This document shows positions 1 to 59,341 of a stretch of 64,000 nucleotides of DNA, in pieces. The notes below the pieces were generated by a model. It was given only the letters and a program-made list of their open reading frames with translations. It searched no databases and was not told the DNA's origin. Each line of letters starts with the position of its first letter. Position 1 is the first letter of the stretch. The stretch is from Eledone cirrhosa (Eukaryota): NCBI GenBank assembly GCA_964016885.1, contig OZ024754.1, positions 37,820,001-37,884,000 of the forward strand, in the 5' to 3' direction. The translations under genes were made by a program, and so were the position numbers.

Positions 1-181
1 TAATTGTTTCTACGTTTGGCACAAGGCCAGCAATTACCCAGTACATTACTGGTACTTTATTTTATCGACCCCGTAAGGATGAAAGGCAAAGTTAACCCTG
101 GCGGGATTTGAACTTAGACCACAAAGGGCCGTAACTCTTTGTTGCAAAGCATGGCGTCCGACTCTCTGCTGATACTGCCAA
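1..181 (-). mobile_element. tRNA-derived SINE family A (mirror copy 13554-13734 +)
   Basis: A-box-like tggcagtatc, B-box agttcaaatcc, core gcctttcatccttacggggtcgataaaataaagtaccag and tail gtagaaacaatta. About 12 dispersed copies in the window. Confidence 0.85.
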
Positions 182-544
182 TCAATGGAAGCTATACCCA
201 TTTTCACAAGAGAAGACATCTCTCATCCACTCCAGAGTGGGTGGGAGATCACCCCGTCGGGCGGAGAGAGTTAACAGGTCTGTTTATTATCCAATCAAAT
301 TTACTCTATTTTATTCAGAGAGAGTATCAAGCACTAGGTTATTCTAATTGAAGATTTAGTCGGCATTTATTGCCGAAATATTTACCACGTTGAGGTTTTA
401 TTGTTGATTTATTTTTCAATATTTGTGGTTTAATCCAAGTTGAGTTATGTCGAACGTACATAGGTTACCAATATTCCACCAGTAACTATGCCGCCTTTTA
501 ATGTGTTCAGTGCAAACTATGCCGCCTTTTAATGTGTTCAGTGC

Positions 545-838
545 AAACTATGCAGTGTGGAAATACATTAACAGACTAAGATCTGATGTTGGACGTGCAA
601 AAATCAATCTTGCAAAATGGGGATATTTAAAGGATGGGGGTGTTGTGTGTGATTGCGGCATCGAACCACAGACTACGCAGCACCTCCTGATATGATGCCC
701 TGTTGGAACACCCCTGTACAGCATTGGACTTGGCAGTGTTTAATGAGAAAGGACAGCAATGTTTTCAGCTGTGGCGGAACCACATCTAGCCAAGCTTTGT
801 AACTGACACTCTTGTAGCCACGATAAGAAGAAGAAGCA
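545..838 (+). mobile_element. 3' end of Vingi/Ingi-like LINE (mirror ~12897-13190 -)
   Basis: WKYINRLRSDVGRAKINLAKWG...CDCGIEPQTTQHLLI*CP, a C-terminal zinc-knuckle motif with an internal stop, followed by a short (AAG)n tail. Confidence 0.6.
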
Positions 839-1217
839 CTTGGTATCTGATACAAGCAAAGGCCTTGTTTCAGGGGGGTACCAGGGGACAAGTCACCCCC
901 CCCCCCCCATCTCACCCCCACCCCACCCTCACCCCACACACACTATATTTTATTTTTTGTTTATTTGACATAATAAATTCTTTTTAAGCTTATTTTTTTA
1001 TATCTGAACTTCATTTGAATATATAAAATTTAATTAGCGTAAGATTTTCCTTATGTGATAGGGTCCGTGAAATGTGATAGGCACCATAAGCAATACTAAC
1101 AGTGTTCCTTTAAGAATCAACAAATGTTGGTTCGTCCCCATCACACTTTTAAGGCAAACAAGGCCCCTGGATACAAGTATCCTACTTTTAGAATTTGTGC
1201 GTTCACAAATCTTCTTT

Positions 1218-1895
1218 GCAATATGCACTCGTTCAGTGCCCGAGCATTGCTGACTTGTGGAACTATGTCGAACAGTTGCTGTCACGTGTGGGACTGATCC
1301 GGTTGTCGACTGAGTCCATTGTGCAGATGGTCTCGCCGTCTTCCTTCGAGGAGGAAGGGCAGGCGGTCTTCATCTGCCTGGTGGCCATGGCGAAAGAGAT
1401 TGTGGTGGACAAGGTTAAAAGGGTTAAAGACAGACACTTTCCTCTTCGGCGAATCCCTAATTAACTTTTTCAAGTTTCACTTGAAGAGAAAATCAGGGTG
1501 GAGGGGCAAGTGCTGCCTTCTAGCAAGTTTGTTGAAAGGTGGGTGAATGTAGCGAGAATGGTCCGAGTGAACGGGACCGCTCTGAATATACGTCTGTAGT
1601 TTGAGAGATGGAAAAATTGAGAGAGAGCGCTTGCCCTGGTGGTCAGGGTGGCCGTGGTCTTTTGTGTGGTTTTTGCCACGAGTAACCCTCGGAGGTTTCC
1701 CCCCTATTGGGGAATTTTTCATTGTTTCAATTTTCATTTTTATTGTTTATATATATATATATGTTTTATGTTCTTTTTTTTTTCTTTTCTTATATAAATA
1801 ATAAAAATATTTACACGCACAAAACCCACATCGTACCGTTCTGTGCCGTCTGTAATGTTTTTCTTGATGTCAGCCCTTGTGGCCAATAAAGAAAT
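1218..1895 (+). mobile_element. 3' fragment of Tx1/L1-like LINE (mirror ~11841-12519 -)
   Basis: ALVQCPSIADLW...AMAKEIVWWTRLKG...KFVERWV, frameshifted. 3'UTR ends cccttgtggccaataaagaaat. Homologous to 56941-57815 and 60888-62050. Confidence 0.75.
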
Positions 1896-1970
1896 CAATA
1901 TTATTATTTAAAAAAAAAATAATAAATAAAGAAATAAAGAAATCAATATTATTATTATTATTATTATTAT

Positions 1971-2257
1971 TTTGGCGACAGTTAGAATGACAATAACGCT
2001 ACTTTCTATTGAGAATTTGTTTTCTTTTGTGAACGCAACAACCAATGCACACACACACACACACACACACACACCATAAATATAAACACACACACTCCAC
2101 ACAAACATACACTACAGACTCACACACACACAAGCACACACACGCACAACACACCACACAAACATACACTCGCACAACACAGCACACAAACATACAATAT
2201 ACTCGCACAAACAACACACCACACAAACATATACCAGACACACACCACACACACATA

Positions 2258-2321
<64 letters not shown>

Positions 2322-2375
2322 GTATCTCTCCCTTCTTTCGACAGTATCTATTTGGCAAAGGTCTGAGCAAGCAAC
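1971..2375. repeat. Dispersed repeat with internal (CA)n; related copy at ~20665-20905, mirror ~11330-11766
   Basis: Shared flanks gcgacagttagaa..aacgcta..gagaattt..aacgcaacaa and tttcg.ca.tat.tattt...agcaagca around CA tracts. Confidence 0.55.
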
Positions 2376-2841
2376 ACCATATTTTGTGGGTAAACAAATG
2401 GCGAATAATAAACGACGACTGAGCAGCTTAATCAGCTCAGGCAGTCTCAGTCAAGATCAAGATATAGTTTTCGTTGATAGTTATTCACGGGGAGTTGTTT
2501 GGACCTATCGTATGTATCCCACAGTGAGTATGTAGCTCTTCTGTTAACCTTTCAATCACCCGTCCCTACATTTATAATATGATGTACAGGGTGGTCCGAA
2601 AGTCTTTTCACCCCCTACCAAGAAGTAATGAGAAACAGTTTATGTTCCCTTCGCAGTATCGTCATCTTCAGAGGAGCTGGTTTACCGAATCTTGCAGTGA
2701 AGTCATGTCGCACATCCTCCATGCTCTTGCCAGAATGTACACGATCATGTGTCCATAAACTTGCAAGCTGCCTCTCTTCCAAACTGTAGGAGCTCTGAAA
2801 TAGAAAATGATATTATTATTATTATATATTATAAAGACGAT

Positions 2842-3013
2842 GGGTTGTCAGTATCGGTAGAAGGTCGGACGCATAGAGTTACGGCCCTTGCCATTCTGAG
2901 TTCAAATCCCCCCGAGGTTAACTTTGCCTTTCATCCTTACGGGGTCAATAAAATAAAGTACCAGTAATGTACTGGGGTAATTGATGGCCTTGTGCCAAAA
3001 GTAGAAACAATTA
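2842..3013 (+). mobile_element. SINE family A copy
   Basis: Same A/B-box and core as 1-181. Tail-to-tail with 3030-3210. Confidence 0.85.
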
Positions 3014-3029
3014 TTATATATTACAAAAG

Positions 3030-3210
3030 TAATTGTTGCTACTTTTGGCACAAGGCCAGCAATTACCCAGTGCATTACTGGTACTTTATTTTATCGACCC
3101 CGTAAGGATGAAAGGCAAAGTTGACCTCGGCGGGATTTGAACTCAGACCGTAAAGGGACGTAACTCTTTGCTGCAAAGCATGGCGTCGAACCCTCTACCG
3201 ATACTGCCAA
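3030..3210 (-). mobile_element. SINE family A copy
   Basis: Full-length match to the family in reverse orientation. Confidence 0.85.
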
Positions 3211-3293
3211 TACACAATGAAAGTCAAAATAATATGTGACAAGGGGTGACAAGACCTTCGGACCACCCTGTATATGAAAGCGTACGCGCTATA

Positions 3294-3583
3294 TTCTTCT
3301 TCTTCTTCTTCTTCTTCTTCTTCTTCTTCTTCTTCTTCTTCTTCGCAACATCACCATCATCATCATCATCATCACCATCAACACCACCACCACCACCACC
3401 ACCACCACCACCATCTCTTCTTATCGCCATCGTCATCATCATCATTACCGTCATCATCATCATCATCATCCTCACCATCATCACCACCGCCGCCGCCGCC
3501 ACCACCACCACCACCACCACCACAATCACCCCCCCCCCCCCCCCATCTTCACCCCCCACCTCCACCATCGTCATCATCATCAA
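3294..3583. repeat. Compound trinucleotide microsatellite (TTC/CAT/CAC/CGC)n
   Basis: Directly visible. Mirror at ~10131-10408. Confidence 0.95.
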
Positions 3584-4244
3584 CTAACATTTTTTTTTTA
3601 CTTCTATAGACATTTGATATATTTAAACCTATGTTTACAACTACAGGTAGGTGTTGTTGTCATACAACAAAACCATGCAACGGAATTTGTGAACCCTGCA
3701 ACTGATAGAGGTTAAACCCAAGTTACTCGTGTTATAAATGCTGGTGATCCAAATTTTGGAATGAAATTAAATTTTTCCACATTTTGTGAAATAAAAGAAA
3801 TCTTTTTGAAATATAAAAAAAATCATCGCTCTACTTGGCTGAATACAGTTTTTCAAATATTAATAATTGTTTCTACTTTTTGGCACAAGGCCAGCAATTA
3901 TCCCAGTGTATTACTGGTACTAATAATAATATTCGATTCGTTTGCAATTATGCAAATAGCCTCTTTTTTGAAGCCATGTCAGTAGAAAACAACAGTAGAA
4001 AACAAGAAAGGAGAAAACAACATTATATATATATATATATATAGTGACGAAACATAAGTCAATTGCGTGAACTCATAATCCTTTATTTACTGCTATATAT
4101 ATTTCGATGATAGCCATTGAATGGCTATGACCTCATCAGGTAGTTAGTCAGCTCTGTGTTTATAGTGTTGATGGTATCAGAGCCTTGGGACATATGTATA
4201 TGTTGATGGTATCAGAGCCTTGGGACATATATATATATAAATAT

Positions 4245-5512
4245 ACTTAGCTTTTATTGACCTAGAGAAGGCCTTTGTAGGGTACCCCGATCTGTCATCT
4301 GGTGGTCCCTAAGGAAACTATGTGTTGAGGAATGGCTTGTGAGGACAGTGCAAGCTATGTACAGAGGTGCTGTCAGTAAAGTGATAGTAGGAATGGAGTT
4401 CAGTGAGGAATTCCAGATACAAGTAGGAGTATATCAGGGTTCGGTCCTCAGCTCGCTCTTGTTCATTATAGTCCTCCAAGCCATAACAGAGGAGTTTAAG
4501 ACTGGCTGTCCATGGGGACTTCTCTATGCTGATGATCAGGTTCTTATAGCAGAATCAGTAGAGGAGCTAGAGAATAAATTCTGGCTATGGAAACAGCAGT
4601 TGGAATCAAGAGGACTGGGAGTGAACCTAGCTAAGACAAAAGTGTTGACAAGTAGATAAGAGGACAAAACTCTGATTCCATCAGGCAAATGGCCATGTTC
4701 GATATATAGGAAAGTAACTGGTATAAATTCTATAAAATATACGCAATGCATATCTTGGGTACACAAGAGATGTAGTGGGATAGCAAGCAAACTAACAGGT
4801 AGGGAAAACTACGTATGCAGTAAATGTACAGGGAAAGTTGACAGTAGTAATCGCAGTGATAGACACATTTTTCAAATGCAGGTGGGTTCTATAGATGTGG
4901 ATGATAGCTTCCGGTACCTAGGTGATCAGATTAGCATGGGAAGGGGTGTTCCGAGGCCATAATATCTAGAATAAGGACGGGTTGGAAGAAGTTTAGGGAG
5001 CTGCTTCCTCTGTTGACAAAGAAGGGTTTCTCTTTGCGTACGAAAGGCCGGTTATATGGTGCTTGTGTGAGATGCGCGATGCTGCATGGTAGTGAGACAT
5101 GGGCAGCAACTACAGAGGATATGCGACGGCTGGAGATAAATGAAGCAAGCATGCTCCGTTGGATGTGCAATGTGCGTGGACGACCAATCATAGATGAGTT
5201 GAGAGAGAAACTGGTATAAGAGGGATAAGTTGTGGCGTGCAGGAGAGAAGACTGAGATGGTATGGACATGTGATGCTCATGCAGGATGACCGCTGGGTAA
5301 AGAAGTGCCAAGAAATCCCAGTAGAAGGAAGGCGCAGTAGAGTAAGACCACGAAAAACATGGGCGGAGGTGGTGAGAGCAGACCTCAGATCACTGAAACT
5401 CACGGAGGAAATGACGAAGGACCGTGACAAGTGGAGAGATGGTGTGCTGAATAGGACCCGTCCCATCCTTGCAAGCAGGGAAAAGCGAACGTAAAATGAT
5501 GATGATGATGAT
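4245..5512 (+). mobile_element. 5'-truncated, decayed RTE-clade LINE
   Basis: RT motifs FIDLEKAF, QGSVLS, LYADD; C-terminal LRWYGHV...GRRSRVRPRKTW; (GAT)n tail; stops and frameshifts. Confidence 0.88.
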
Positions 5513-5815
5513 GTTGATACATATATATATACATATATATACATATATAATTATAAAAAACGAGGAGTCACTGTTGCATCATGTCACATTTATTAACATA
5601 ATACATATCTGTGTTCAGACACACAAAACATATCTGAAGAGTCGGGTTCGATCTGTAAGAGCTGATCGGCGGAGAAGCATATGTAATATGTTAATAAATG
5701 TGACATGATGCAACACTGATTCCTCGTTGTTTATAGTATTATACTCTGCTCTGTGCGAGCATCGAGTGCTCAACCGGCATACCGCCTACGGACGTATTTA
5801 CCTGCAACCTTACAA

Positions 5816-5946
<131 letters not shown>

Positions 5947-6034
5947 ATCTATATATATCATCATCATCACTGTTTAATGTCTATTTTCCATTCTTGCATG
6001 GGTTAGACAGGTCTGCTTATATATATATATATAT

Positions 6035-6075
<41 letters not shown>

Positions 6076-6119
6076 TTTGCGTCCGCTTTTCCCTGATTAT
6101 ATATATGTGTGTTTCTTTA

Positions 6120-6894
<775 letters not shown>

Positions 6895-6982
6895 AAAAAA
6901 AAGGAAAGCATTAAATGACAAAATTTCTCTTAAGTATGTTGGATGAATATTTTCAGGAGACTTGAATATACAAATGAACTTT

Positions 6983-7027
<45 letters not shown>

Positions 7028-7283
7028 ACACACATATATATATACATACATACACACAGACACACATATATCTACGGTTCTTATATATTTGATATATATT
7101 TATCCTTAACGAGCCCTCTTTGGATTTTAGTCTTCAAATTTATTATTATTACTATATATATATATATATATATAAGTAGACCTGTTCACTTGACCAGTCT
7201 AACCCATGCAAGTACGCAAAAAAGACATTAAACAGTGATGATGGTGATGATATATATACATACACACACACACACACACACAC

Positions 7284-7378
<95 letters not shown>

Positions 7379-7387
7379 CATATATAC

Positions 7388-7443
<56 letters not shown>

Positions 7444-7501
7444 ATATATATCATCACCATCATCACTGTTTAATGTCTATTTTCCGTACTTGCATGTATA
7501 T

Positions 7502-7537
<36 letters not shown>

Positions 7538-7538
7538 G

Positions 7539-13734
<6,196 letters not shown>

Positions 13735-20831: not shown

Positions 20832-21276
20832 CATACATACACACACATGCACCATCTCCTCCTTACCTTTCGTCAATATTATTTTACCAAACATCTCAGC
20901 AAGCAGCTGTATGTAAGTAAATCAATAGAGAAGGTAAGCAACTGACATATTTTTTCGCTACCTAAATATTTCCTTCGATGCGAATTAAAATTCCCAATGT
21001 AGAAAGAAAGGAAATACAAAAATAATAGAAAATAAAACCAAAATTCGGATAATTTTCGTCCATGCTGACCGTCTACAATTAATATAATTTTAAAAGAATT
21101 TTACAGAACTGTTTGGATTTTATATTAATATTTCGAGATAAGTAAGCAGTTCGCTTCTTTCAACACACACCACACATACATACATGCATGTATGCATGCA
21201 TACACACATACATACATACATGCATCCATGCATGCATGCATGTATGTATGTGTGTGTGTATACATACATACATACA

Positions 21277-21310
<34 letters not shown>

Positions 21311-21783
21311 CATACATACACTCATGAGAAATCTAGACACTCCACCCTGACTATACATACAAATTTATGCCCAAGATTATTGGGGCACTGGGATATGTTA
21401 GTAACTGCCTCAATACAAATCTTGAGAAGCTGGGGTTCTCGGGAACAGATAGAAAACGACTAGTTAGGAAATTACAAGTACAATCCAGTAAAAATATGTA
21501 AAACATTCCAAAAATTCTGCATCTAATAACTGCATATATACTTGTACAGATACAAAGCATATGCACATGCACACATACAACTCAATACGCAAACATCCAC
21601 ACATACAATAACATGCACGCATGCAGACATTCAGACATATCTACCTAGATGATGTTATGTAAATTCCAATGAGAGAGTCTTGTAACTATGTTAGAAACCG
21701 ACTCTCTCTCTCTATTGGTAAACATTTGTGAAATTATAAAACCAGAAGAACATACTTACATACATACATACATACATACATAC

Positions 21784-22391
21784 ATGGTGGCTGCCAACTC
21801 GTTTTCGAGTACGGCCACTACTTTATATCCATGTAGGAGAACCCCTACCGATGCGCTGAACGAGTGTGACTTTTTAGTCCAGCCAGCGACTTGACAACTC
21901 TGGTACAAACACTACACTTGTGACAATATTTGACACATAGTGCTGGGCCCATGGTACCATGTGACGACAAGTGCAGAGAGATCTCCAGATATAAAGCAAT
22001 GCCTGTGCCGTGAAGCTTTTATAGTGAGAAAAGGCACTGCACAAAGCCAGTCCCACTCTCTTAACCAAGATGATATTTAACAAAAAGAAGAACAAGTCAA
22101 CATCATTGGATACCATCAGGGTTGCAGGTGTTATATCAGAGTTTTCCTTCTCCTAGAATTCTGCCTTGACAAAGGCTAAGGGGTCATCTCTCCCAGTGAT
22201 TTTGGATGGCCATTGACTCATAAGAGCTCCTTTGCCCTTTGACAGGTTTTGTTTTTAGTCCTGCAGGATGTCCAAAGTTACCCTCCTCACCAAGAAACCT
22301 TGGTGGGGTTGCCAGTTTAGTCGCCAACGACCCGACCATGAGACAGGTTGTACTGGGATACATGTTACCAGTAGCACCAACTGGTGACCTG
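21784..22391 (-). mobile_element. ~610-bp non-autonomous element X1 within (CATA)n (second copy 32321-32928)
   Basis: Two near-identical copies with the same ends. RTE-5'UTR-like motifs taaactggcaaccccacc and tctaggagaaggaaaactctga on minus; (ATGT)n tail. Confidence 0.65.
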
Positions 22392-22442
22392 ACATACATA
22401 CATACATACATACATACATACATACATACATACATACATACA

Positions 22443-22976
22443 TGATGGCTGCCCCTTCGTTATCGAGTATGGCCATTGCATGATATACCATTATTAATAA
22501 TTATCAATTAATGCTATCGTGCAATGCCTGTGGGTGAAGATATTTTTTAAAGTGAGGAAAGACTGTACATTGAGCCAATCCCACTCTCTGAGCGACAGTA
22601 ACTATAACCCGAAAAGAAGAAAAGATCAACATCACCGGTAACTACTGAGCCACAGGTTTTATATCAGAGTTATCACAGTTTCCTGAGTTGCCTTCTCCTA
22701 GAAGAATGCCCCGACAAAGGCTAGAGGTCCTTCACTCCCAGTGGTTTAACCGCGTGGTACATGTGTATATACATATTTACACACTTTCGGATGGCCGTTG
22801 GCCCTTATGAGTTCTTCCGCCCTTTGTCAGGTTTTGTTTTTTGTCCTGCTGGGTGTCCAAAATCACCCTCCTCACCAAGTAAACTTGGTGGGGTTGCCAG
22901 TTTAGTCGCCGACGGCCCGACCATGCGACAGGTTGTACTGGGTTACATGTTACTAGTAGCACTCAAGGGTGATCCG
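22443..22976 (-). mobile_element. ~535-bp non-autonomous element X2 within (CATA)n (second copy 24426-24959)
   Basis: Shares both terminal regions with X1. End remnants of about 30 bp at 23220-23249 and 23437-23463. Confidence 0.65.
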
Positions 22977-23102
22977 ACATACATACATACATACATACAT
23001 ACATACATACATACATACATACATACATACATACATACATACATACATCTTTTATTCGAATTCGTAGAGATATCCGACTAAATACATAATTCATTTTACA
23101 AG

Positions 23103-26100
23103 GGTTTGCTACGAATAAGATGGCTGAACACAGCAAGACCAGCAACATTAAAAAAGTACCGAACAAAAACGATGAGAAAGGTAAACAAAATGTACATACG
23201 TACATACATACATACATACATGTTACTAGTAGCACTCAAGGGTGATCCGACATACATACATACATACATACATACATCTTTTATTCGAATTCGTAGAGAT
23301 ATCCGACTAAATACATAATTCATTTTACAAGGATTTGCTACGAATAAGATGGGTGAACACAGCAAGACCAGCAACATTAAGAAAGTAACAACCAAAAACG
23401 ATGAGAAAGGTAAACAAAATGTACATACATACATACATGTTACTAGTAGCACTCAAGGGTGATCATACATACATACATACATACATACATCTTTTATTCG
23501 AATTCGTAGAGATATCCGACTAAATACATAATTCATTTTACAAGGATTTGCGACGAATAAGATGGCTGAAAACAGCAAGACCAGCAACATTAAGAAAGAA
23601 CCGAACAAAAACGATGAGAAAGGTAAACAAAATGTACATACATACATCTTTTCGAATTTGTAGAGATATCTGACTAAATACATAATTCATTTTACTAGGA
23701 TTTGCTGGAAACAGACAGTTTAAAAGACGTAAGACACTCGCCAAGAAAGGTAAACAAAATTTACATACATACATACATCTTTTCTTTGAATTCGTAGAGA
23801 TATCTGACTAAATATATAATTCATTTTACAAGGATTTGTTCCATTGTGCACGAATGACTTCAGCGACATCAGGATTAAGCAATTCCCAAGTGTAACCAAC
23901 GAGAGAGGTAAACAAAATTTAATACATACATACAGACATACAGACATACAAACATACATACATCTTTTCTTCGAATTCGTAGAGATATCTGACTAAATAT
24001 ATAATTCATTTTACAAGCATTTGCTACAAGGAGCATGGATTTCAGCGACACCTGGATTTTTGAGGAATTACCGAAGTTAAACATGTCTGAACACAGCAAG
24101 ACCAGCAACATTAAGGAAGTACCGAACAAAAACGATGAAGAAGGTAAACAAAATTTACATACATGCATGCATACATACATCTTTTATTCGAATTTGTAGA
24201 GGTATCTGACTAAATACATTATTCATTTTACAAGGATTTGCTACGACCAGCAAGGCTGAAGACAACGACATCAATAACATTAAGGAAGTACAGAAGGAAA
24301 ATTACGAGAAAAGTAAGCAAAATTTATTCAGTTGTAGCTCCAGAAGAAACCGAAATTATAAATCGCACATACATACATACATACATACATACATACATAC
24401 ATACATACATACATACATACATACATGATGGCTGCCCCTTCGTTATCGAGTATGGCCATTGCATGATATACCATTATTAATAATTATCAATTAATGCTAT
24501 CGTGCAATGCCTGTGGGTGAAGATATTTTTTAAAGTGAGGAAAGACTGTACATTGAGCCAATCCCACTCTCTGAGCGACAGTAACTATAACCCGAAAAGA
24601 AGAAAAGATCAACATCACCGGTAACTACTGAGCCACAGGTTTTATATCAGAGTTATCATAGTTTCCTGAGTTGCCTTCTCCTAGAAGAATGCCCCGACAA
24701 AGGCTAGAGGTCCTTCACTCCCAGTGGTTTAACCGCGTGGTATATGTGTATATACATATTTACACACTTTCGGATGGCCGTTGGCTCTTATGAGTTCTTC
24801 CGCCCTTTGTCAGGTTTTGTTTTTTGTCCTGCTGGGTGTCCAAAATCACCCTCCTCACCAAGTAAACTTGGTGGGGTTGCCAGTTTAGTCGCCGACGGCC
24901 CGACCATGCGACAGGTTGTACTGGGTTACATGTTACTAGTAGCACTCAAGGGTGATCCGACATACATACATACATACATACATACATACATACATACATA
25001 CATCTTTTATTCGAATTCGTAGAGATATCCGACTAAATACATAATTCATTTTACAAGGATTTGTTCCATTGTGCATCAATGACTTCAGCGACATCAAGCT
25101 TAAGCAATTCCCAAGGGTAACCAACGAGAGAGGTAAACAAAATTTAATACATACATACAGACATACAGACATACAAACATACATACATCTTTTCTTCGAA
25201 TTCGTAGAGATATCTGACTAAATATATAATTCATTTTACAAGCATGTGCTACAAGGAGCATGGATGAAATCACCGACACCTGGATTTTTGAGGAATTACC
25301 GAAGTTAAACATGGCTGAACACAGCAAGACCCGCAACATTAAGGAAGTACCGAACAAAAACGATGAGAAAGGTAAACAAAATTTACATACATGCATGCAT
25401 ACATACATCTTTTATTCGAATTTGTCGAGGTATCTGACTAAATACATTATTCATTTTACAAGCATTTGCTACGACCAGCAAGGCTGAAGACAACGACATC
25501 AATAACATTAAGGAAGTACAGAAGGAAAATTACGAGAAAGGTAAACAAAATTTATTCAGTTGTAGCTACAGAAGAAACCGAAATTATAAATCGCACATAC
25601 ATACATACATACATACATACATACATACATCTTTTATTCGAATTTGTAGAGATATCCGACTAAATACATAATTCATTTTACAAGGATTTGCTACGAATAA
25701 CATGGCTGAACACAGGAACACCAAGAAGATTGAGAAAGTACCGAACGAAAACGATGAGAAAGGTAAACAAAATGTACATACAGACATACAGACATACAAA
25801 CATACATACATCTTTTCTTCGAATTCGTAGAGATATCTGACTAAATATATAATTCATTTTACAAGGATTTGCTACAATGAGCATGGATGAATACAGCGAC
25901 ACCTGGATTTTTGAGGAATTACCGAAGTTAAACGTCGACAAAGGTAAACAAAATTTACATACATGCATGCATACATACATCTTTTATTCGAATTTGTCGA
26001 GGTATCTGACTAAATACATTATTCATTTTACAAGCATTTGCTACGACCAGCAAGGCTGAAGACAACGACATCAATAACATTAAGGAAGTACAGAAGGAAA

Positions 26101-29100
26101 ATTACGAGAAAGGTAAACAAAATTTATTCAGTTGTAGCTACAGAAGAAACCGAAATTATAAATCGCACATACATACATACATACATACATACATACATAC
26201 ATACATACATACATACATCTTTTATTCGAATTTGTAGAGATATCCGACTAAATACATAATTCATTTTACAAGGATTTGCTACGAATAACATGGCTGAACA
26301 CAGGAACACCAAGAAGATTGAGAAAGTACCGAACGAAAACGATGAGAAAGGTAAACAAAATGTACATACAGACATACAGACATACAAACATACATACATC
26401 TTTTCTTCGAATTCGTAGAGATATCTGACTAAATATATAATTCATTTTACAAGGATTTGCTACAATGAGCATGGATGAATACAGCGACACCTGGATTTTT
26501 GAGGAATTACCGAAGTTAAACGTCGACAAAGGTAAACAAAATTTACATACATGCATGCATACATACATCTTTTATTCGAATTTGTAGAGGTATCTGACTA
26601 AATACATTATTCATTTTACAAGGATTTGCTACGAACAACATGGCTGAACACAGCAAGACCAGCAACATTAAGGAAGTACCGAACAAAAACGATGAGAAAG
26701 GTAAACAAAATGTACATACATACATACATACATACATACATACATACATACAACTTTTATTCGAATTCGTAGAGGTATCCGACTAAATACATTATTCATT
26801 TTACAAGGATTTGCTACGACCAGCAAGGCTGAAGACAACGGCATCAATAACATTGAGGAAGTACAGAAGGAAAATTACGAGAAAGGTAAATAAAATTTAT
26901 TCAGTTGTAGCTACAGAAGAAACCGAAATTATAAATCGCACATACATACATACATACATACATACATACATACATACATACATACATACATACATACATA
27001 CATACATACACACATACATACACACATACATACATACATACATACATACATACATACATACATACATACATACATACATACATACAACTTTTATTCGAAT
27101 TCGTAGAGGTATCCGACTAAATACATTATTCATTTTACAAGGATTTGCTACGACCAGCAAGGCTGAAGACAACGGCATCAATAACATTGAGGAAGTACAG
27201 AAGGAAAATTACGAGAAAGGTAAACAAAATTTATTCAGTTGTAGCTACAGAAGAAACCGAAATTATAAATCGCACATACATACATACATACATACATACA
27301 TACATACATACATACACACATACACACATACATACATACATACATACATACATACATACATACATACATACATACATACATACATACATACATACATACA
27401 TACATACATACATACATACATACATACATACATACATACATACATACATACATGCATACATACATACATACATACAACTTTTATTCGAATTCGTAGAGGT
27501 ATCCGACTAAATACATTATTCATTTTACAAGGATTTGCTACGACCAGCAAGGCTGAAGACAACGGCATCAATAACATTGAGGAAGTACAGAAGGAAAATT
27601 ACGAGAAAGGTAAACAAAATTTATTCAGTTGTAGCTACAGAAGAAACCGAAATTATAAATCGCACATACATACATACATACATACATACATACATACATA
27701 CATACACACATACACACATACACACATACATACATACATACATACATACATACATACATACATACATACATACATACATACATACATACAACTTTTATTC
27801 GAATTCGTAGAGGTATCCGACTAAATACATTATTCATTTTACAAGGATTTGCTACGACCAGCAAGGCTGAAGACAACGGCATCAATAACATTGAGGAAGT
27901 ACAGAAGGAAAATTACGAGAAAGGTAAACAAAATTTATTCAGTTGTAGCTACAGAAGAAACCGAAATTATAAATCGCACATACATACATACATACATACA
28001 TACATACATACATACATACATACATACATACATACATACATACATACATACATACATACATACATACATACATACATACATACATACATACCTTAACCTG
28101 TTCTTACAGGATCACTGTGCTGCCAACAAGATCATAACACCTGAGCAAGCTGGTGGAAAGAGGGAGGTGTGGGGTTGCATAGATCACCTACTAACTAACA
28201 AAATGATTCAGGAAAAAACAACAAAGAATCGCAGAAACATGACTGTCGTGTGGCTGGACTATCAAAAAGCATTTGATAGTGTACCTCATGGGTGGATTGT
28301 TAAGGCTTTACAGTTAGCTAAAGTCCCACAACCATTGGTAGCTGCTGTTGAACGCCTGACCAAGGACTGGTACACCAGTTTGATCCTTAGAGGTGAGAAG
28401 GAGCAGGTTAAGACTGATAAGATACATTACCAGAAGGGCATCTTTCAGGGTGATAGCTTGTCAGTGCTACTCTTCGTTCTCTCACTGAATCCACTATCTT
28501 ACCTACTCAGGAAACAAGGTGGACAAAGAAGTGGGACCAGAAGTATCTCCCATCTTTTCTTTGTTGATGACCTGAAGTTGTATGGGCCAAATATCAATGA
28601 CATCAAGAAACAATTGGACCTCATTACACAATTTTCAACCGACATCAAAATGAAATTTGGTGAGTCCAAGTGTGCATATTTGGCAGTAAAACGTGGAAGA
28701 GCTGTGCCCTCCTCTAGAAATCTAGAGATGAACGGCCTGACAATACAACCTCTGCAGTCAGGTGACAACTACAGATATCTTGGACAGGATGAGAATGTCA
28801 GATATGATGGACCCATAAATAAGGAGAGAACCAGAACTGAATACCTCAGAAGAGTAAAGAAAATATGGTCATCAGAACTGTCAGCATACAACAAATACAT
28901 TGCCCACAATACTTATGCTGTGCCAATTCTAACGCCAACATTTGGCCTACTGAACTGGTCATTGCAAGAACTAAGTGAGATGGATGTTAGAACTCGAAAA
29001 CTTCTCAGTGTTACTGGGAACTTTAACATCAATGGTGATGTGGATAGGCTATACTTCTCACGCAAGGAAGGTGGCCGGGGTCTAAAATCAATATTAACAA

Positions 29101-31649
29101 CATATGAGACCCGGATAGTGACACTGAAGCAACACCTTCAACAGAGGAAAAAGGTTGGCAACCATCTTGCCCAGGTTTATGACCATGAAAAAAGAAATAT
29201 CATTAGAATAGCGACTGATCTGGAGGAGAGATATGGAATAAAGCCTGATATAAATCTCTCACCCAGAGAAATCGGAAGATCCTATTCAATGTTCAAACAA
29301 GATAAAAAAATTGACCAATTTACAGAAAAAGTTGTGCATGGATACTTGAGGCGTAAAACACAGACCATAAAGGGGATAAACCACTCAAAAAGCCTGGCAT
29401 GGAGTTCCGACAAGTTTATGACATCACACCTTGAGGGATATCTCTATGCAATACAGGAACAAGAACTCCCTACCAAATATCTGCTGCACAAAAGAGGAGG
29501 GCCAGCAGCTGACAATAAATGTAGGCTATGTAAAACAAAGATCGAGGATGTAAGCCACATTGTTGCCAGCTGCGAAAGAATGTCATCTCGCTACTACCTC
29601 CCCATGAGACACGATGGGATAGCTAGAACCATGTGGAACGCACTTCGGAAAACAAAATTAACAACAAACGAGGAAGAATATATTGAGACAGATGGCACTA
29701 AGGAATACTGGTGGAACCTGAAAATAAAAACTGCCACCAAATTAAAGCACAACCGGCCTGATATTGTAGTTTGGGACCACACATTGAAAACGTGTTCTGT
29801 TGTGGAGATCAGCTGCCCACTTGATGTAAACGTTGTCAGAAAAATACAGGAGAAGGAGGACATCTACGGACCATTGATGAGGAGTTTACAAATCCAGTAT
29901 CCAAGATACACCTTTAGCTTCATACCCATCATTATTGGTGCTACGGGTTATATACCAACCCGCTTGGACCAAAGTATGACTGAACTTGGATTTGTGGACA
30001 AAAAGCGCAGCTCCCTAATTCATAGTCTACAAATGGCTGCGATAGCTGGCACCTTCAAAATTTGCAAAACATTCTTGCGATTCAAGGGATGACAATTTCT
30101 TTTCTTTTACAACCTTGCCACCAGGAAGGTGGCCGGTCAAAAAAATATACTCGAAATTAAGAGAAAGAGAAAACATACACACATACATACACACATACAT
30201 ACATACATACATACATACATACATACATACATACATACATACATACATACATACATACATACATACAACTTTTATTCGAATTCGTAGAGGTATCCGACTA
30301 AATACATTATTCATTTTACAAGGATTTGCTACGACCAGCAAGGCTGAAGACAACGGCATCAATAACATTGAGGAAGTACAGAAGGAAAATTACGAGAAAG
30401 GTAAACAAAATTTATTCAGTTGTAGCTACAGAAGAAACCGAAATTATAAATCGCACATACATACATACATACATACATACATACATACATACATACATAC
30501 ATACATACATACATACACACATACATACATACATACATACATACATACATACATACATACATACATACATACATACACCCTAATTCATAGTCTACAAATG
30601 GCTGCGATAGCTGGCACCTTCAAAATATGCAAAACATTCTTGCGATTCAAGGGATGACAATTTCTTTTCTTTTACAACCTTGCCACCAGGAAGGTGGCCG
30701 GTCAAAAAAATATACTCGAAATTAAGAGAAAGAGAAAACATACATACATACATACATACATACAACTTTTATTCGAATTCGTAGAGGTATCCGACTAAAT
30801 ACATTATTCATTTTACAAGGATTTGCTACGACCAGCAAGGCTGAAGACAACGGCATCAATAACATTGAGGAAGTACAGAAGGAAAATTACGAGAAAGGTA
30901 AACAAAATTTATTCAATTGTAGCTACAGAAGAAACCGAAATTATAAATCGCACATACATACATACATACATACATACATACATACATACATACATACATA
31001 CATACATACATACATACATACATCTTTTATTCGAATCCGTAGAGATATCCGACTAAATACATAATTCATTTTAGAAGAATTTGCTACAAATAACATGGCT
31101 GAACACAGCAAGACCAGCAACATTAAGGAAGTACCGAACAAAAACGATGAGAAAGGTAAACAAAATGTACATACATACATACATACATACATACATACAT
31201 ACATACATACATACACACATACACACATACATACATACATACATACATACATACATACATACATACATACATACATACATACATGCATACATGCATACAT
31301 ACATACATACATACATACATACATACATACATACATACATACATACATACATACATACATACATACATACAACTTTTATTCGAATTCGTAGAGGTATCCG
31401 ACTAAATACATTATTCATTTTACAAGGATTTGCTACGACCAGCAAGGCTGAAGACAACGGCATCAATAACATTAAGGAAGTACAGAAGGAAAATTACGAG
31501 AAAGGTAAACAAAATTTATTCAGTTGTAGCTACAGAAGAAACCGAAATTATAAATCGCACATACATACATACATACATACATACATACATACATACATAC
31601 ATACATACATACATACACACACACATACATACATACATACATACATACA

Positions 31650-31682
<33 letters not shown>

Positions 31683-31685
31683 GCA

Positions 31686-31719
<34 letters not shown>

Positions 31720-33249
31720 CATACATACATACATACATACATACATACATACATACATACATACATACATACAACTTTTATTCGAATTCGTAGAGGTATC
31801 CGACTAAATACATTATTCATTTTACAAGGATTTGCTACGAATAACATGGCTGAACACAGCAAGACCAGCAACATTAAGGAAGTACCGAACAAAAACGATG
31901 AGAAAGGTAAACAAAATGTACATACATACATACATACAACTTTTATTCGAATTCGTAGAGGTATCCGACTAAATACATTATTCATTTTACAAGGATTTGC
32001 TACGACCAGCAAGACTGAAGACAACGACATCAATAACATTAAGGAAGTACAGAAGAAAAATTACGAGAAAGGTAAACAAAATTTATTCAGTTGTAGCTAC
32101 AGAAGAAGCCGAAATTATAAATCGCACATACATACATACATACATACATACATATTTTATTCGAATTCGTAGAGATATCCGACTAAATACATAATTCTTT
32201 TTACAAGGATTTTCTACGAACAACATGGCTGAATACAGCAAGACCAGCAACATTAAGGAAGTACCGAACAAAAACGATGAGAAAGGTAAACAAAATGTAC
32301 ATACATACATACATACATACATGGTGGCTGCCAACTCGTTTTCGAGTACGGCCACTACTTCATATCCATGTAGAAGAACCCCTACCGATGCGCTGTACGA
32401 GTGTGACTTTTTAGTCCAGCCAGCGACTTGAAAACACTGGTACAAACACTACACTTGTGACAATTATTGACACATTGTGCTAGGCCCTTAGTACCATGTG
32501 ACGACAAGTGCAGAGAGATCTCCAGATATAAAGCAATATCTGTGCCGTGAAGCTTTTATAGTGAGCAAAGGCACTGCACAAAGCCAGTCCCACTCTCTTA
32601 ACCAAGATGGTATTTACCAAAAAGAAGAACAAGTCAACATCATTGGATACTATCAGGGTTGCAGGTGATATATCAGAGTTTTCCTTCTCCTAGAATTCTG
32701 CCTTGATAAAGGCTAAGGGGTCATCTCTCCCGGTGATTTTGGATGGCCATTGACTCTTAAGAGCTCCTTTGCCCTTTGACAGGTTTTGTTTTTAGTCCTG
32801 CAGGATGTCCAAAGTCACCCTCCTCACCAAGAAACCTTGGTGGGGTTGCCAGTTTAGTCGCCAACGACCCGACCATGGGACAGGTTGTACTGGGATACAT
32901 GTTACCAGTAGCACCAACTGGTGACCTGACATACATACATACATACATACATACATACATACATACATACATACATACATACATACATACATACATACAT
33001 ACATACATCTTTTATTCGAATTCGTAGAGGTATCCGACTAAATACATTATTCATTTTACAAGGATTTGCTACGACCAGCAAGGCTGAAGACAACGACATC
33101 AATAACATTAAGGAAGTACAGAAGGAAAATTACGAGAAAGGTAAACAAAATTTTTTCAGTTGTAGCTACAGAAGAAACCGAAATTATAAATCGCACATAC
33201 ATACATACATACATACATACATACATACATACATACATACATACATACA

Positions 33250-33280
<31 letters not shown>

Positions 33281-33410
33281 TTTATTCGAATTCGTAGAGA
33301 TATCCGACTAAATACATAATTCATTTTACAAGGATTTGCTACGAATAACATGGCTGAACACAGCAAGACCAGCAACATTAAGAAAGTACCGAACAAAAAC
33401 GACGAGAAAG
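23103..33410 (+). CDS. Predicted array of 29 symmetric phase-1 micro-exons (2328 nt, 776 aa if all included) encoding GFAT...EK repeats
   Basis: AG/GT-bounded, stop-free segments: 23103-23180, 23332-23409, 23545-23622, 23699-23749, 23833-23907, 24018-24143, 24235-24312, 25058-25132, 25243-25371, 25463-25540, 25685-25762, 25866-25943, 26035-26112, 26273-26350, 26454-26531, 26623-26700, 26808-26885, 27142-27219, 27532-27609, 27846-27923, 30323-30400, 30820-30897, 31078-31155, 31427-31504, 31829-31906, 31994-32071, 32208-32285, 33063-33140, 33333-33410. Lengths are 78 (x24), 75 (x2), 51, 126 and 129. No expression data. Confidence 0.65.
28091..30173 (+). mobile_element. 5'-truncated R4/Dong-like non-LTR retrotransposon (RT + CCHC + restriction-like endonuclease) inserted in (CATA)n
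   Basis: Uninterrupted frame to TGA at 30092: WLDYQKAFDSV, GIFQGDSLS, FFVDD, CRLC..HIVASC, RHD, RPDIV..VEISCP..KEDIY. 81-nt 3'UTR. CATA repeats on both sides. Confidence 0.93.
30578..30738 (+). mobile_element. 161-bp 3' fragment of the same R4-like element
   Basis: Near-identical to 30013-30173, with the same gagaaaa|catac junction. Confidence 0.93.
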
Positions 33411-33660
33411 GTAAACAAAATTTATTCAGTTGTAGCTACAGACGAAACCGAAATTATAAATCGCATTTCTCTTGGAGTTGCGAATTTAATGATGATTTAT
33501 TTAATTGTTATAAAATGGCAATAACAAAAAAAATCCCTCCGTTAGCTACATGAACAGAATGAAGCTACACTGGGACGAAATACATCCGGAGCTAAATCAT
33601 TTCACAGCCAAACAAATACGCCAACAAGCGATGTTTGTTGAACGTAAAAATAAGATAAAT
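33411..33660 (+). mobile_element. Decayed N-terminal region of an R4/Dong-like ORF contiguous with the last array unit
   Basis: FSWSCEFNDDLFNCYKMA..(frameshift in A-run ~33526-33533)..PSVSYMNRMKLHWDEIHPELNHFTAKQIRQQAMFVERK. This resembles the W..E.N..L..CY...GY..RM...W....P.....L..Q motif of RLE-type LINE N-termini; recognised from memory, not searched. Confidence 0.6.
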
Positions 33661-34421
33661 ATTATTAATTGTAAGTCCCTCAGAACAAACATGGATTCAA
33701 CAACACGCGATACAGTTCGCCATAACAGTGCCTTGAAACAACTATGCCTGTAAAAAATTTGACACTCCGTGTACCATCTGAGTCTACCTCGACTGTTGTG
33801 GAAAACACTATCGATAATAGCACTATCGTTCGGCTACCTGCCCAGGCTCTGCTGCCTGCCAAACCGAAGAGGGCAAACTATGCAAATATCCGCCGCTCTC
33901 ATATATGTTTGTGGTAGAGCCTGTAGCAGTGGAGACTTCCAGCATTGTCGGACCCTGGACCACATGCCTACTCACTGCTATCGGAGCAGAGTTGGCTGCA
34001 CGCCGATGCGAGCCCCACGAGGTGAAGGGGCTGTTCTAGCTTGTCTCCCTCATCGTACTCTGGGACAATGTATCCAATCTCCATCCTGCCTGGCGGGACC
34101 CATAGGTGGAGTATAAGTTAGTTGGTGGTGAAGGATACTTGTTCGGACTTCACTTTTACACGTGTTTTGAGTGCCTTTTTGAATCCATTCATTTCATATA
34201 ATATATCAACAATAAAATCAATACACAAACACACTAAGAGATTAACCTCTCCGATGTCAAATGACTCAAAGGCCATAATATGAGCAAAGGCGAGCAGAAT
34301 CCCTACTTGACCTTACAAACCTGCTGTTCATGGAACAAATAGAGCTCTATCCAATAAAGGTTAAAAATGACATAAATCTCAGGTTCTAATTTTATTTTTG
34401 TATATATATTTATACACACGC

Positions 34422-37205
<2,784 letters not shown>

Positions 37206-40249: not shown

Positions 40250-42489
40250 TATAAACGTTTGAATATGTATAATAAAGCCAAAACAATGCAGGTATGGACA
40301 TAGAAAAAAGAATGCAATTGCAAAAGATATTGTTGACAAATCGTCTTTTACCTTAGATTTATTTAAATGTCCTTAATTTTCGAGATAATATCTCTTCTTC
40401 AGAGGGAAATAAAGGTCTCAAACCAGCCTTCTAAATATCTTGCCAAGCCATGCTGACAGGAAATAGTATAGAGTATCTGTTCTATCTCTAATGTCAAAGA
40501 GTTAAAATTAGGTGGATAAAGAGTAGTCTCCCTTTAAAAGGGGTTTGTTTAGGTTTTTTTTTTAAATTTTATATATACATGCCTGTTTAAGTGTGTGGGA
40601 GAATGCATGAAGGTGTAAGTATGTGAGTGTGTGTGTGTGAGTGTGAGAAGATAAGTCTATTCGTAAATGTGGGGGATAGGTGTTATCTGGTGTTAGAACT
40701 GGTTTTGTGTGTGTATGTGTGAGAGAGAATAAGTGGAGGTGTAAGCGTGTGTGTGTGGGGGGGGGGTGTAAATATGGGGCTAGAAGCCCTATCAGGTTAT
40801 AAATTGGGTGTTGAGTTCTAGTCTATTATTGATTGGTGGTTGTGTTTTATCTATAATTAGTGCTTCCTTAATTCTAAGATTGCCGAGGTTTCTTTCCTTA
40901 GTTTCTATCCTAACTGTTATGGTTTTGTCGGTGTTTTTGCATTTAGCTAGGTGTTTCTTAAATGAGGAAGCGTTAGTATTGAGGTGTTCTTTTATTCTTA
41001 TGTGGAGTGGTCTGGTGGTGCTACCTACGTAGAAGTTGTTGCATTTGTCACACTCTAGTCTGTATACGACGTAAGCCTGATGGCATAGGTCTGTGTCGTT
41101 GATGGGGCAGTTGGCTAGTCTGCAACAGTTGTCATGTCTGGTGGAGTGTCTTTTGGTTAGGTTAGCTGTCCGCGTAGAGAAGGACCTGAGTGGGCCAGTT
41201 GGATATCTAGTCCCTCTCGTCTGATGGCTCTGCGGATGGCTGTTGTTGTTTCTTCACTGAAGTGCGGGAGCTTCAGGAAGCAAGTGTTAGTGCCTCGGGT
41301 GTGGTATCCTCTGTTCTTTCTGGCACGGTTTGTGGTGGATGTCGTGTATCCGTTCAGTTTGAGTACTTCCAGGAAATGTGTGGTGTATGTGTCTCGGTCT
41401 CTAGCGTCGGTGCATTTGTTCCGGATACGTGCCAGTTCGTTCCTTATGTATCCGAACTTGGCACCGAGTGGGAGGGCCGATCTGAAATGTACGAACAGGT
41501 CCCTGCTGGCGGCTTTTTTATAGAAGCAGGTGTGGATGTTGCCTTCCTCTGTTACCCTGAGTTGGAAGTCCAGTAGGGATAGGGATCCGCGGTCATCGGG
41601 GTGTTCCATGCTGAACTTTATACTGGCGTCCATGCTGGAGAATGTTGTGTATATTTTATCTGCCTCCTCACGGGATGATGTAAGGATGAGTATGTCATCT
41701 ACATATCGGGTGAAGAAGGCATGGGAATGGCAGGTGTTGAGGGCTCGGCATTCTAGCTGGTTCATGTAGGTGATGGCCAGCAGGCCCGATAGGCTGGATC
41801 CCATGGGTAATCCTGTTGTCTGTCTGTATGTGTGGTGGTGGAAGGTGAAGTACGTGTTGTCTACTGTGAAGGACAAAAGCTGGTGTATGTCCGTCGGGTG
41901 GAGGCCGTAGCAGTGGATGTCCTCTGCGACCACGCAGTCCGTCAATAAATCGACAGCTGGATGAGCGGGGACTGTAGTGTAGAGGGAGACAACGTCTCGG
42001 CTAAAAGCGTATTTATTTAGTTTAAGTTGTTCTGGCTGGAGTTGGTGTAGTCTACGTATAACTTCGTCGGAGCTACTGACATGCCCGGGAAGGTGGAGAG
42101 TAGAGGCTTGAGGACCTGGGAGAGGAGCCAGAAAATTTTGTATAGGGGTCCTTCTATGCTAGAGACGATGGGTCTTATTTGCGTCTTAGTACTATTCTTG
42201 TGGGTCTTGATGAGGTGGTAGAAAGTGGGCAGTCTGCTATTTCTAGTGGTGTAGTTGAGCTTAATTTTATTTGGGAGTTGTCTTCTCCTACAGATATCGA
42301 ACCAAATGGAGTTGATCTGTTTTTCGATCTGGGCTGCAGTCATGTCCGGGATCTCTGTGTATAATTCATTGTCGCTTAGGTGTTCAAAGGATAGGTTATT
42401 GTATGTGGCTTGAGAGATGACGCAAAACTCTTTACCTTTGTCGGATGGTAAGTATATAAGTTCCCTATTCCTTAGGTTAACCTCCTCCA
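40250..42489 (-). mobile_element. 5'-truncated Penelope-like element (second family)
   Basis: PSDKG, YHLIKTHK..IRPIVS, GLPMGSSLSG, RYVDD, LLDF; GIY-YIG VVYRLECDKCNNFYVGSTTRPLHIRIKEH. Frameshifted. Confidence 0.92.
40371..40406 (-). ncRNA. Minimal hammerhead ribozyme motif of Penelope repeat
   Basis: cct-CTGAAGA-agagat att atctc-GAAAA-TTA-agg on minus. Confidence 0.6.
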
Positions 42490-42504
42490 TATATATATAT
42501 ATAT

Positions 42505-42997
42505 GAAATGAAAATTGATGGAGGCTGCGGAGTGGGTAGACCAAGAAAAACCTGGGACGAGGTGACAAAACCTGACCTTGCCCACCTACAGCTCTCTAAC
42601 ACAATGACACTGGATCGAGACCCTTGGCGCCATACAGTTGTACAGAAGACCCGACTACCATTGCATACAAACCTACAGTCAGTAGGCATCTCTTAACTCA
42701 ATGTACACCCCACCGCTACATCCTCCCTCTCCCGTTCCGTCCACTGTGTCAATGACACAACAATCCACACTGTAAGGTGGTCGTGCAGGAGTCACGGTGA
42801 AAAGTCTCCCAGTCCACACTCTAAAAGTGTTTGGTGTTAGGAAGGGCATCCAGCTGTAAAAAAACCCCCACCAGAGTCGCTTCCGTGCGAGTGAGACACG
42901 GTGTCTCGACCATTCCCGCATCAAATTGAACAAAACCGTCTAACCCATGCTAGCGTGGAAGATGAATCTTAAACGAAAATGGTGATGATGATGATGA
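42505..42997 (+). mobile_element. RTE 3' fragment plus RTE-related SINE-like tail
   Basis: GRPRKTWDEV motif, ggaagggcatccagctgtaaaa, ctaacccatgctagcgtggaagat and (GAT)n. Relatives at ~43990-44140, 51277-51720, 62445-62725 and 63078-63360. Confidence 0.7.
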
Positions 42998-43692: not shown

Positions 43693-43753
43693 TTGACGGC
43701 TGAGAAGAAAGAGTAATCATATTCATATATTCATTAACTTTTCAGAAATTCCA

Positions 43754-43984
43754 ATGTCTGAAGAAGGTCAAGGCAGAAAGAAGGAACAGAAGAAAATAAG
43801 AATCTGGTGGTTTGAACGCTCAGAATTGATATTAATTTTCTTCACCCCTGTGATGCTCTTGTCCCAGACACTCTTGCATTACTACGTGGACTGGCGAATA
43901 GGAAAGAATTACTATCGAAAGCACAATACCGCCTTCTCTTCGACTTGTAACCATCGCCATCAGTCTATAAAAAATCATCATAAG
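43754..43984 (+). CDS. SLC46A1-like: SLC46-family (PCFT-like) MFS transporter, TM1/loop-1 exon
   Basis: MSEEG...ELILIFFTPVMLLSQTLLHYYVDWRI...STCNH...HK, parallel to PCFT EPLVFL...QYLWHRF...C. Phase-0 donor AAG|GTAAGA. Acceptor ttttcag ends at 43745. Confidence 0.8.
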
Positions 43985-52954: not shown

Positions 52955-53804
52955 GTGCAACGTTTGACAGCTTTATGGATAACAGATATGTTAGCTTTGG
53001 AATCCTTTCTGAGCATTTTTACAATATTTGTAATACATTCACTGAGCGAAGTATATGGTCGCAAATTCGGCATGCTGGTGTCTTCGACCGGCACTATCAT
53101 GAAAATCGTTTTAAGTGCAGTGACGATCTACTATACACTTCCATTGGAGGTCTTATTTGTAGCCAGCGCTATTAATGGCATCACTGGTGGACCTGCGAGC
53201 TTTATCACTTGTGCTGTGTCACAGATTACCGATACGTACCCGCACAAAGATAAGAGCTGCCGTAAATTTATAAGAGCTCAAAATCTTTCATTTGGAATAG
53301 CCGGCCTTTTTACAATTTATTTCGGCTTAATCATAGAAATCTTTGGCTATTTCTCCGCTTGCGTATTTTTGCTCCCTTTAGCTGTTCTCAATATAGTCAT
53401 CATTCTACACCTTCCAGATAACTCCACACAGAAGGAAGTCGATTGGAACTTTTCTAAAATTAAAACGTCATTTATAAAGATATGGAACGTAATGACTATT
53501 AGGAAACGGTTGTTGTTGTTCTTATTCATATCAGCCTCACCCATTAGTTATATGCCTCTTGGAGGACAGACTTTCTATACCACACAATTACTTATTAACA
53601 TACCATTTTGCACCAGCATTTTCTTCACCGGATTTACTTTGGCTATTTCCACTTTCACTTTTTTAACACCAAATTACTACTCATACCGACTGAATAAACC
53701 AGGTTTTTCTGTCAATACTATAATTGCTGGAAATCTGTTTGTCGGATACCTTAGCAGTCTCATCATTACAATAGCAGAAAAAAGAAATACATATTATGAT
53801 GCAG
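52955..53804 (+). CDS. SLC46A1-like: SLC46-family MFS transporter, large 850-nt exon (about TM2-TM9)
   Basis: Strong polypyrimidine acceptor; VQRLTALW..SEVYGRK (MFS motif A-like)..GITGG..ITD; multiple TM segments; phase-1 donor CAG|GTATAA. Confidence 0.9.
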
Positions 53805-58353: not shown

Positions 58354-58437
58354 TTTTGGTCAACAACAACGCTGTCTTTCTGATATTGTATCTGACCATC
58401 AGAACCATGTTACCTTCTCTTGAAATTAAATTGCACG
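58354..58437 (+). CDS. SLC46A1-like: SLC46-family transporter, 84-nt phase 1-1 exon
   Basis: ctaac branch + tag acceptor; (V)LVNNNAVFLILYLTIRTMLPSLEIKLH(G); donor ACG|GTAAAG. Size and phase match the 84-nt third exon of human SLC46A1. Confidence 0.8.
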
Positions 58438-59184: not shown

Positions 59185-59341
59185 GTTATCTCTATGCCTT
59201 GTTGTTCACTATGAATTCATTTGGTACAACACTAATGTTACCTCTACTCAATACGATATATTTGAAAACATTCACATACTTTCCTGGTGCTGTATTTTGC
59301 CCCTATGCCGCAATCCTTTTTATTGCTACAGTCACTCAAAT
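59185..59341 (+). CDS. SLC46A1-like: SLC46-family transporter, 157-nt exon (TM11-12)
   Basis: ttctttag acceptor; (G)YLYALLF..LLNTIYLKT..FPGAVF; donor AT|GTAAGT. The terminal exon was not located. Confidence 0.88.

Follow-up and report, generated by a model that had tools for sequence, protein, structure and literature searches.

A LINE-derived array of putative exons upstream of an SLC46-like transporter gene in Eledone cirrhosa

Results

Organization of the locus

The window, by which we mean the whole stretch of DNA analysed, comprises 64,000 nt of the Eledone cirrhosa assembly GCA_964016885.1 (OZ024754.1, positions 37,820,001–37,884,000, forward strand), and coordinates without a prefix refer to it. 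Parsing of the sequence reveals an array of 29 units on the plus strand (23046–33410), with CATA tracts between the units. Exons of a predicted membrane protein follow on the same strand. Exon A (43746–43984), which is entered in phase 1, contains an ATG of its own and encodes the first transmembrane helix. The MFS/SLC46-like exon B (52955–53804) contributes 283 codons and is followed by exons C (58354–58437) and D (59185–59341), while exon E starts at 64948, just beyond the window end. A candidate mini-exon of 31 or 35 nt (21107–21141, plus strand) precedes this array and all its counterparts described below, and is probably 5′UTR. Its similarity to the N-terminus of isoform X1 of Octopus bimaculoides was not significant, 51–218 of 300 shuffled sequences aligning equally well. 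Between the array and exon A, two decayed reverse transcriptase plus GIY-YIG-like frames are present at 34371–35748 (plus strand) and 40792–42595 (minus strand), which from their motifs we take to be Penelope-like.

Exon B was assigned to the major facilitator superfamily with very high confidence on the basis of its features. Its best database match is O. bimaculoides XP_014771056 (41% identity), with which exons A–D align in order. The connection to the proton-coupled folate transporter (PCFT) is indirect: exon B matches a distant E. cirrhosa paralog with an E value of 1e-9, and this paralog, an SLC46-type gene of conventional structure whose N-terminus is short (L153:6359-7489; G000:C2), matches PCFT (7bc6) with an E value of 9e-29. 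P0003 matched PCFT at E 0.07, direct Pfam and PDB searches with the transporter gave no hits, and two structure predictions for exon B were of insufficient quality for use (pLDDT 47 and 36). The sequence comparisons suggest that the host gene encodes an SLC46/PCFT-like transporter, the PCFT link running via the distant paralog.

The array is part of a larger structure. The junction between cassette donor and CATA tract occurs 186 times in the genome, on one strand, and all 186 occurrences fall within a 464-kb region around the window. In this region 360 units could be parsed, two of them by hand (one with a duplicated acceptor, one with an insertion behind the donor). They form six tandem clusters of 6, 240, 41, 32, 12 and 29 units, each preceded by a common upstream flank. 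Exons A and B lie downstream of five clusters, and the remaining one is followed by exons C and D only. Paralog 4 (C14 37,788,664) lacks the acceptor and ATG of exon A, and its exon C was not detected. In paralog 5 (C14 37,809,539–37,814,827) exons A and B were not detected, and the phase of the cassettes matches that of exon C.

Several rearrangements accompany these genes. In paralogs 1–4, exon B is preceded by a small duplicate of part of itself in inverted orientation (C14 37,643,0xx; 37,725,7xx; 37,758,6xx; 37,796,0xx), and none was detected in the window paralog. The segment 37496–38090 is 97–99.7% identical among four paralogs, compared with about 87% in its surroundings, and is multi-copy in DNA contigs; it is a young mobile element or the product of gene conversion. 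A neighbouring older, head-to-head paralog of the transporter shows about 42% identity (G000:C14 ~37,626,500–37,627,050, minus strand, L105). It carries a K/E/N/G pentapeptide repeat in the exon before the first transmembrane helix, and some 4.5 kb farther upstream lies a candidate for its first coding exon. Two copies of this candidate exon (~2400–2530 and ~11170–11300) are found within a large inverted duplication at 484–13251 of the window, which shows mirrored repeats and ORFs.

The terminal unit and the source of the array

The last unit of the array begins at 33280, behind a CATA tract, and is the only one of the 29 that continues into LINE sequence. It reads ...MAEHSKTSNIKKVPNKNDEKGKQNLFSCSYRRNRNYKSHFSWSCEFNDDLFNCYKMA in frame 1 and, after one shift near 33530, SYMNRMKLHWDEIHPELNHFTAKQIRQQA in another frame, as the original prediction, made from the sequence alone, had described. 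That prediction also had the other units cut off at two fixed points, and the 28 units indeed fall into 16 short ones that end about 11 nt past the donor and 12 long ones that end at ...AAATCGCA. The terminal unit contains a predicted 78-nt exon with phase 1 at both ends (33333–33410, plus strand), composed of 17 nt of LINE 5′UTR, the LINE ATG at 33350 and the first 20 codons of the LINE. It is bordered by an AAG acceptor-like and an AG|GTAAAC donor-like site. AAG is an uncommon splice acceptor. The continuation of the LINE ORF at 33411–33660 on the plus strand, frameshifted near 33530, corresponds to a conserved N-terminal domain and is predicted to be intronic here.

A search of the E. cirrhosa genome with 33280–33800 gave 1,811 candidates, of which 40 were scored; 20 of those loci were examined and comprised 19 dispersed copies and one paralogous array (L021). 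Over 33280–33819 the terminal unit shares 85–88% identity with every one of the 19 dispersed loci, which bears out the expectation that its continuation is LINE-like. Of these loci 18 continue into the reverse transcriptase (RT), 15 reach the end of the restriction-like endonuclease (RLE), and 10 share the same 3′ end followed by a CATA tract. Inspection by eye indicated a longer 5′ end in 14 of the 19, which begins about 140 nt before the unit does and right behind a CATA-type tract. The family, called B here, thus targets CATA-type tracts, which are found before its 5′ end and after its 3′ end. The unit had been proposed to be the 5′ end of an element; it is a near-5′ part, starting some 140 nt inside. 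The plus-strand segment 33280–33819 lacks the first ~140 nt of the element and everything past ~540 nt, and since LINE homology stops at 33819, we regard the terminal unit as the remnant of the founding insertion. Over 33411–33700 it is 92.7% identical to the dispersed copies, which are 95.5% identical among themselves. The other units lie upstream of this remnant, in agreement with the leftward tandem amplification that had been suggested.

The LINE copy at 28091–30173 (plus strand), a 5′-truncated element in the CATA tract between units, had been named as a member of the source family. It belongs to a different family, A. Comparison of family A 5′ ends with 33277–33660 revealed a different 5′ end in 12 of 20 copies and the unit in none of the 20. 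From these comparisons we are nearly certain that the source is family B, an older sister family with about 50% identity to family A in the RT–RLE protein. Family A is young and looks recently active, with 99–100% identity among 40 scored copies of 1,572 candidates and intact ORFs of about 1,170 amino acids, including those at L050, L053, L059 and L060. The N-terminal domains of the two families are homologous, with 35–42% identity in dispersed copies and an E value of 4e-5 for the piece in the window. Family B copies are decayed but can be aligned from end to end with the 1,170-aa ORF of family A, for which Pfam reports RVT_1 and zf-RVT. A single ORF with RT, CCHC knuckle and RLE is therefore inferred for family B, where we read the CxxC..H..C and RPD..E motifs as the knuckle and the endonuclease. 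The best named match of the N-terminal domain was Myb_Rap1, at a fairly high score that serves as a mere lead; Pfam returned no Myb match.

Related sequences occur elsewhere in and around the arrays. A separate fragment of a family B 3′ end lies just upstream of the array (21319–21758), and a family A copy starting at that family's own 5′ end is located inside cluster 2 (C14 ~37,679,100). Two short, mutually related elements of 610 nt (21783–22392 and 32320–32929) and 537 nt (22441–22977 and 24424–24960) are inserted in CATA tracts both in the window and at numerous loci elsewhere, and are probably non-autonomous partners of CATA-targeting LINEs. At an unrelated locus (L027:1963-4394), three tandem 752-nt pieces of the family B 5′ end precede a long copy.

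This tendency to insert into CATA tracts bears on the alternative raised in the original prediction, that the units are abortive 5′ ends of elements, which we take to mean separate insertions into a CATA tract that was growing. The tract is indeed a target, pieces of families A and B and the two short elements have been inserted there, and the tandem pieces at L027 are of a similar nature. However, the junction was found at this one locus alone (186 of 186 in the 464-kb region), all units share one internal start point, and the unit types show a higher-order periodicity. In addition, all but one of 56 sampled units (55) are placed apart from the group that the dispersed copies form, and a single clade of units was not rejected (p-AU 0.46), a weak result based on 139 columns. 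Independent insertion is therefore highly improbable, and tandem duplication of one fragment is the preferred reading of the array.

Cassette structure and evidence for coding use

The AG...GT cassette that had been predicted is present in the units. Throughout the 360 units, an AG is followed by 75 or 78 nt (51, 77, 126 and 129 nt once each) and then by GTAAAC or a variant. The cassette has the make-up seen in the terminal unit, 17 nt of UTR followed by the LINE ATG and 20 codons. In the window all 29 cassettes have AG and GT, lengths that are multiples of three (51, 75, 78, 126 or 129 nt) and no stops, and together they amount to 776 codons. Units exit in phase 1, the phase in which exon A is entered. 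These sites by themselves carry little weight. Among dispersed family B copies, chosen on the downstream segment (the misparsed L121 was dropped, and the 5′ part was missing from 7 of 30), the cassette is 78 nt long in 19 of 22 and followed by GT in 21 of 23; two show an in-frame deletion of 6 nt. Because the sites and the 78-nt length are inherited from the LINE, their mere presence in the array proves nothing, and only changes that arose after amplification are informative.

Such changes are unevenly distributed. None of the 318 cassettes with a GT donor has a stop, a frameshift or a lost acceptor, as compared to 5 of the 42 non-GT cassettes (a stop in one, a frameshift in another and a lost acceptor in three; Fisher p 1.7e-5, counted per unit). 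The three acceptor losses probably represent one event, which would leave three events in total. We also counted each derived codon allele once, over all codons including those before the ATG. In GT units no stop allele was found among 317 in the cassette frame, against 6.9 expected (P 0.00096), and the five other frames showed no deficit (observed/expected 31/19.7, 25/20.9, 20/15.2, 8/8.9 and 7/5.8). In non-GT units one was observed and 0.9 were expected. Dispersed cassettes have stops in 4 of 22, and 3 of their 45 substitutions create a stop (Fisher p 0.004 in comparison with the array); the stop-allele method gave 5 against 3.0 expected for these copies, a rough figure obtained with fixed windows. 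The deficit is not significant in the window array alone (0 against 1.2 expected), and cluster 2 is the only cluster that reaches P<0.05 by itself.

The peptide sequence itself appears to be free to change. No purifying selection on the cassette peptide was found along a spanning tree, with pN/pS values of 1.0 and 1.26. Synonymous alleles were below expectation in all six frames with the method used, and positive selection is not claimed. Intron-side flanks are nearly as stable in length as the cassettes (4 of 137 distinct flanks differ from the modal length).

These data allow the arrays to be considered as a neutral minisatellite derived from the LINE, located in an intron and never spliced, with the transporter made from the ATG of exon A, which could indeed allow its expression independently of the array. 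A pN/pS near 1 and splice-like sites that come with the LINE would fit this, as would the fact that the arrays next to the damaged paralogs 4 and 5 are wholly intact (32/32 and 12/12 cassettes). Satellites that arose from retrotransposons are known (PMC7004042). Against a neutral array stand the phase match with exon A and a stop deficit seen in just one of the six frames and only where the unit has a GT donor, and we consider it quite unlikely. The coding use that had been proposed thus receives indirect support, from the stop and frameshift statistics and the phase match to exon A, with splicing inferred.

In silico joining of the 29 window cassettes to exons A–E gives 1,233 codons before the first stop. 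The predicted product consists of a K/E/N-rich tail of 776 amino acids and the transporter. Its 10 hydrophobic segments all occur after residue 800, and the first ~780 residues are hydrophilic. Cassette peptides contain 16% K, 14% E and 13% N. Protein searches for the fused long form or the repeat peptide yielded no match, in a weak search that also missed the O. bimaculoides homolog with 41% identity. Three sequencing runs from one sample behave as DNA, covering introns and mobile elements and giving no exon-to-exon joint among the matches listed. They may stem from the assembly's own sample and are not counted as independent support.

Splicing could also include only one or a few cassettes at a time, as alternative first coding exons or skipped exons, each giving a start codon together with an N-terminus that is short and variable. 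About half of the intact cassettes have an in-frame ATG (177/315), every subset stays in frame, non-synonymous changes are at least as frequent as synonymous ones, and a tail of 5,000 amino acids in cluster 2 is hard to credit. The residues before the ATG are likewise stop-free, however, which requires read-through from upstream units. This possibility overlaps with the preferred explanation since both need splicing; taken as the few-at-a-time form alone, it appears unlikely.

Discussion

The observations on the six arrays suggest the following scenario, which we regard as probable: a fragment from the start of an R4/Dong-like LINE was multiplied in tandem upstream of SLC46-like exons, and its AG...GT core is spliced and translated as repeated exons. 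Homology shows that a family B element lies in the sense orientation behind a CATA tract upstream of exon A and that 540 nt of it are left. Dispersed copies already possess the AAG 17 nt before the ATG and AG|GTAAAC 61 nt after it, which delimit a 78-nt phase-1 cassette that is in frame with exon A. Cassette and flanks were presumably duplicated through unequal exchange at CATA tracts, and duplication of the whole gene may then have led to six tandem copies, now with 6, 240, 41, 32, 12 and 29 units. The avoidance of stops and frameshifts suggests that GT-donor cassettes enter the mRNA and are read through into the transporter. Translation would probably start at the ATG of the LINE itself, in unit one or two; every cluster has this ATG in one of its first two cassettes.

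Cassette exons used in this way would likely give the transporter a long charged N-terminal tail. The N-termini of MFS proteins are cytosolic. The tail is predicted to be hydrophilic, rich in K, E and N, disordered and located in the cytosol, and selection would keep it open while its sequence is not fixed. It could act via length and charge, as a spacer or in the control of trafficking or turnover, or be merely tolerated. An open frame with a free sequence fits a tail that matters for its bulk properties, as well as a tail tolerated since a stop would destroy the transporter. The K/E/N/G repeat of the older paralog and a short acidic repeat in the O. bimaculoides homolog favour a role for a charged tail but do not prove it. 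XP_014771056 has about 40 residues before the first transmembrane helix, whereas the E. cirrhosa paralogs would have 130–5,000. A further-reaching idea, possible though doubtful, is that the LINE start acts as a self-amplifying exon module, with microsatellite-driven duplication and reuse of the native ATG and frame. Six translated, differently composed and alternatively spliced tails of up to ~5,000 residues would then be selected for length or charge and replace the simple-repeat tail of the older paralog.

R4/Dong elements are described as having a single ORF with RT, CCHC knuckle and RLE, a microsatellite target and a conserved N-terminal domain (PMC7998251), and Dong-R4 families were recently active in Octopus vulgaris according to PMC13282606. 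Family B resembles them in ORF architecture and target type and likewise has a conserved N-terminal domain, a placement based on architecture and target. It differs in its (CATA)n target, most Dong elements being described as targeting (TAA)n (PMC7998251). At the E. cirrhosa array just the 540-nt remnant of such an element survives and its first codons have been multiplied.

Exonisation of transposable elements and tandem exon duplication are treated as separate routes to new exons, most exonised elements being antisense and new exons tending to be symmetric (PMC2592719). As in the Alu-type exonisation described there, the case proposed here involves cryptic AG/GT sites in an intronic retroelement and symmetric exons. 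Unlike it, the E. cirrhosa cassette is in the sense orientation, would use the native LINE ORF frame and was amplified to 360 copies. Satellites described as non-coding tandem arrays of a retrotransposon part (PMC7004042) differ from the array studied here, in which stops are avoided in one particular frame and which adjoins host exons with matching phase.

Tandem arrays of many short symmetric exons are also formed by the titin PEVK exons and the Dscam variable exons, which to our knowledge are not derived from retrotransposons. The low-complexity charged product is reminiscent of titin PEVK and the variable cassettes of Dscam. Amplification of a LINE cassette to form an array of coding exons and an SLC46-like expansion of this kind were both absent from the literature searched, which was mostly open-access and was covered through listings and the beginnings of abstracts.

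If the cassettes are spliced, they would represent a recent and fully traceable new protein region built from a retrotransposon, since a single genome contains the source family and the founding remnant, along with the amplified exons, dead-exon controls and an outgroup paralog. A single LINE fragment would then be able to give rise to coding exons by the hundred, which annotation of repeat-masked sequence does not see. One could also test whether selection acts on a property of a new disordered tail or merely keeps it free of stops.
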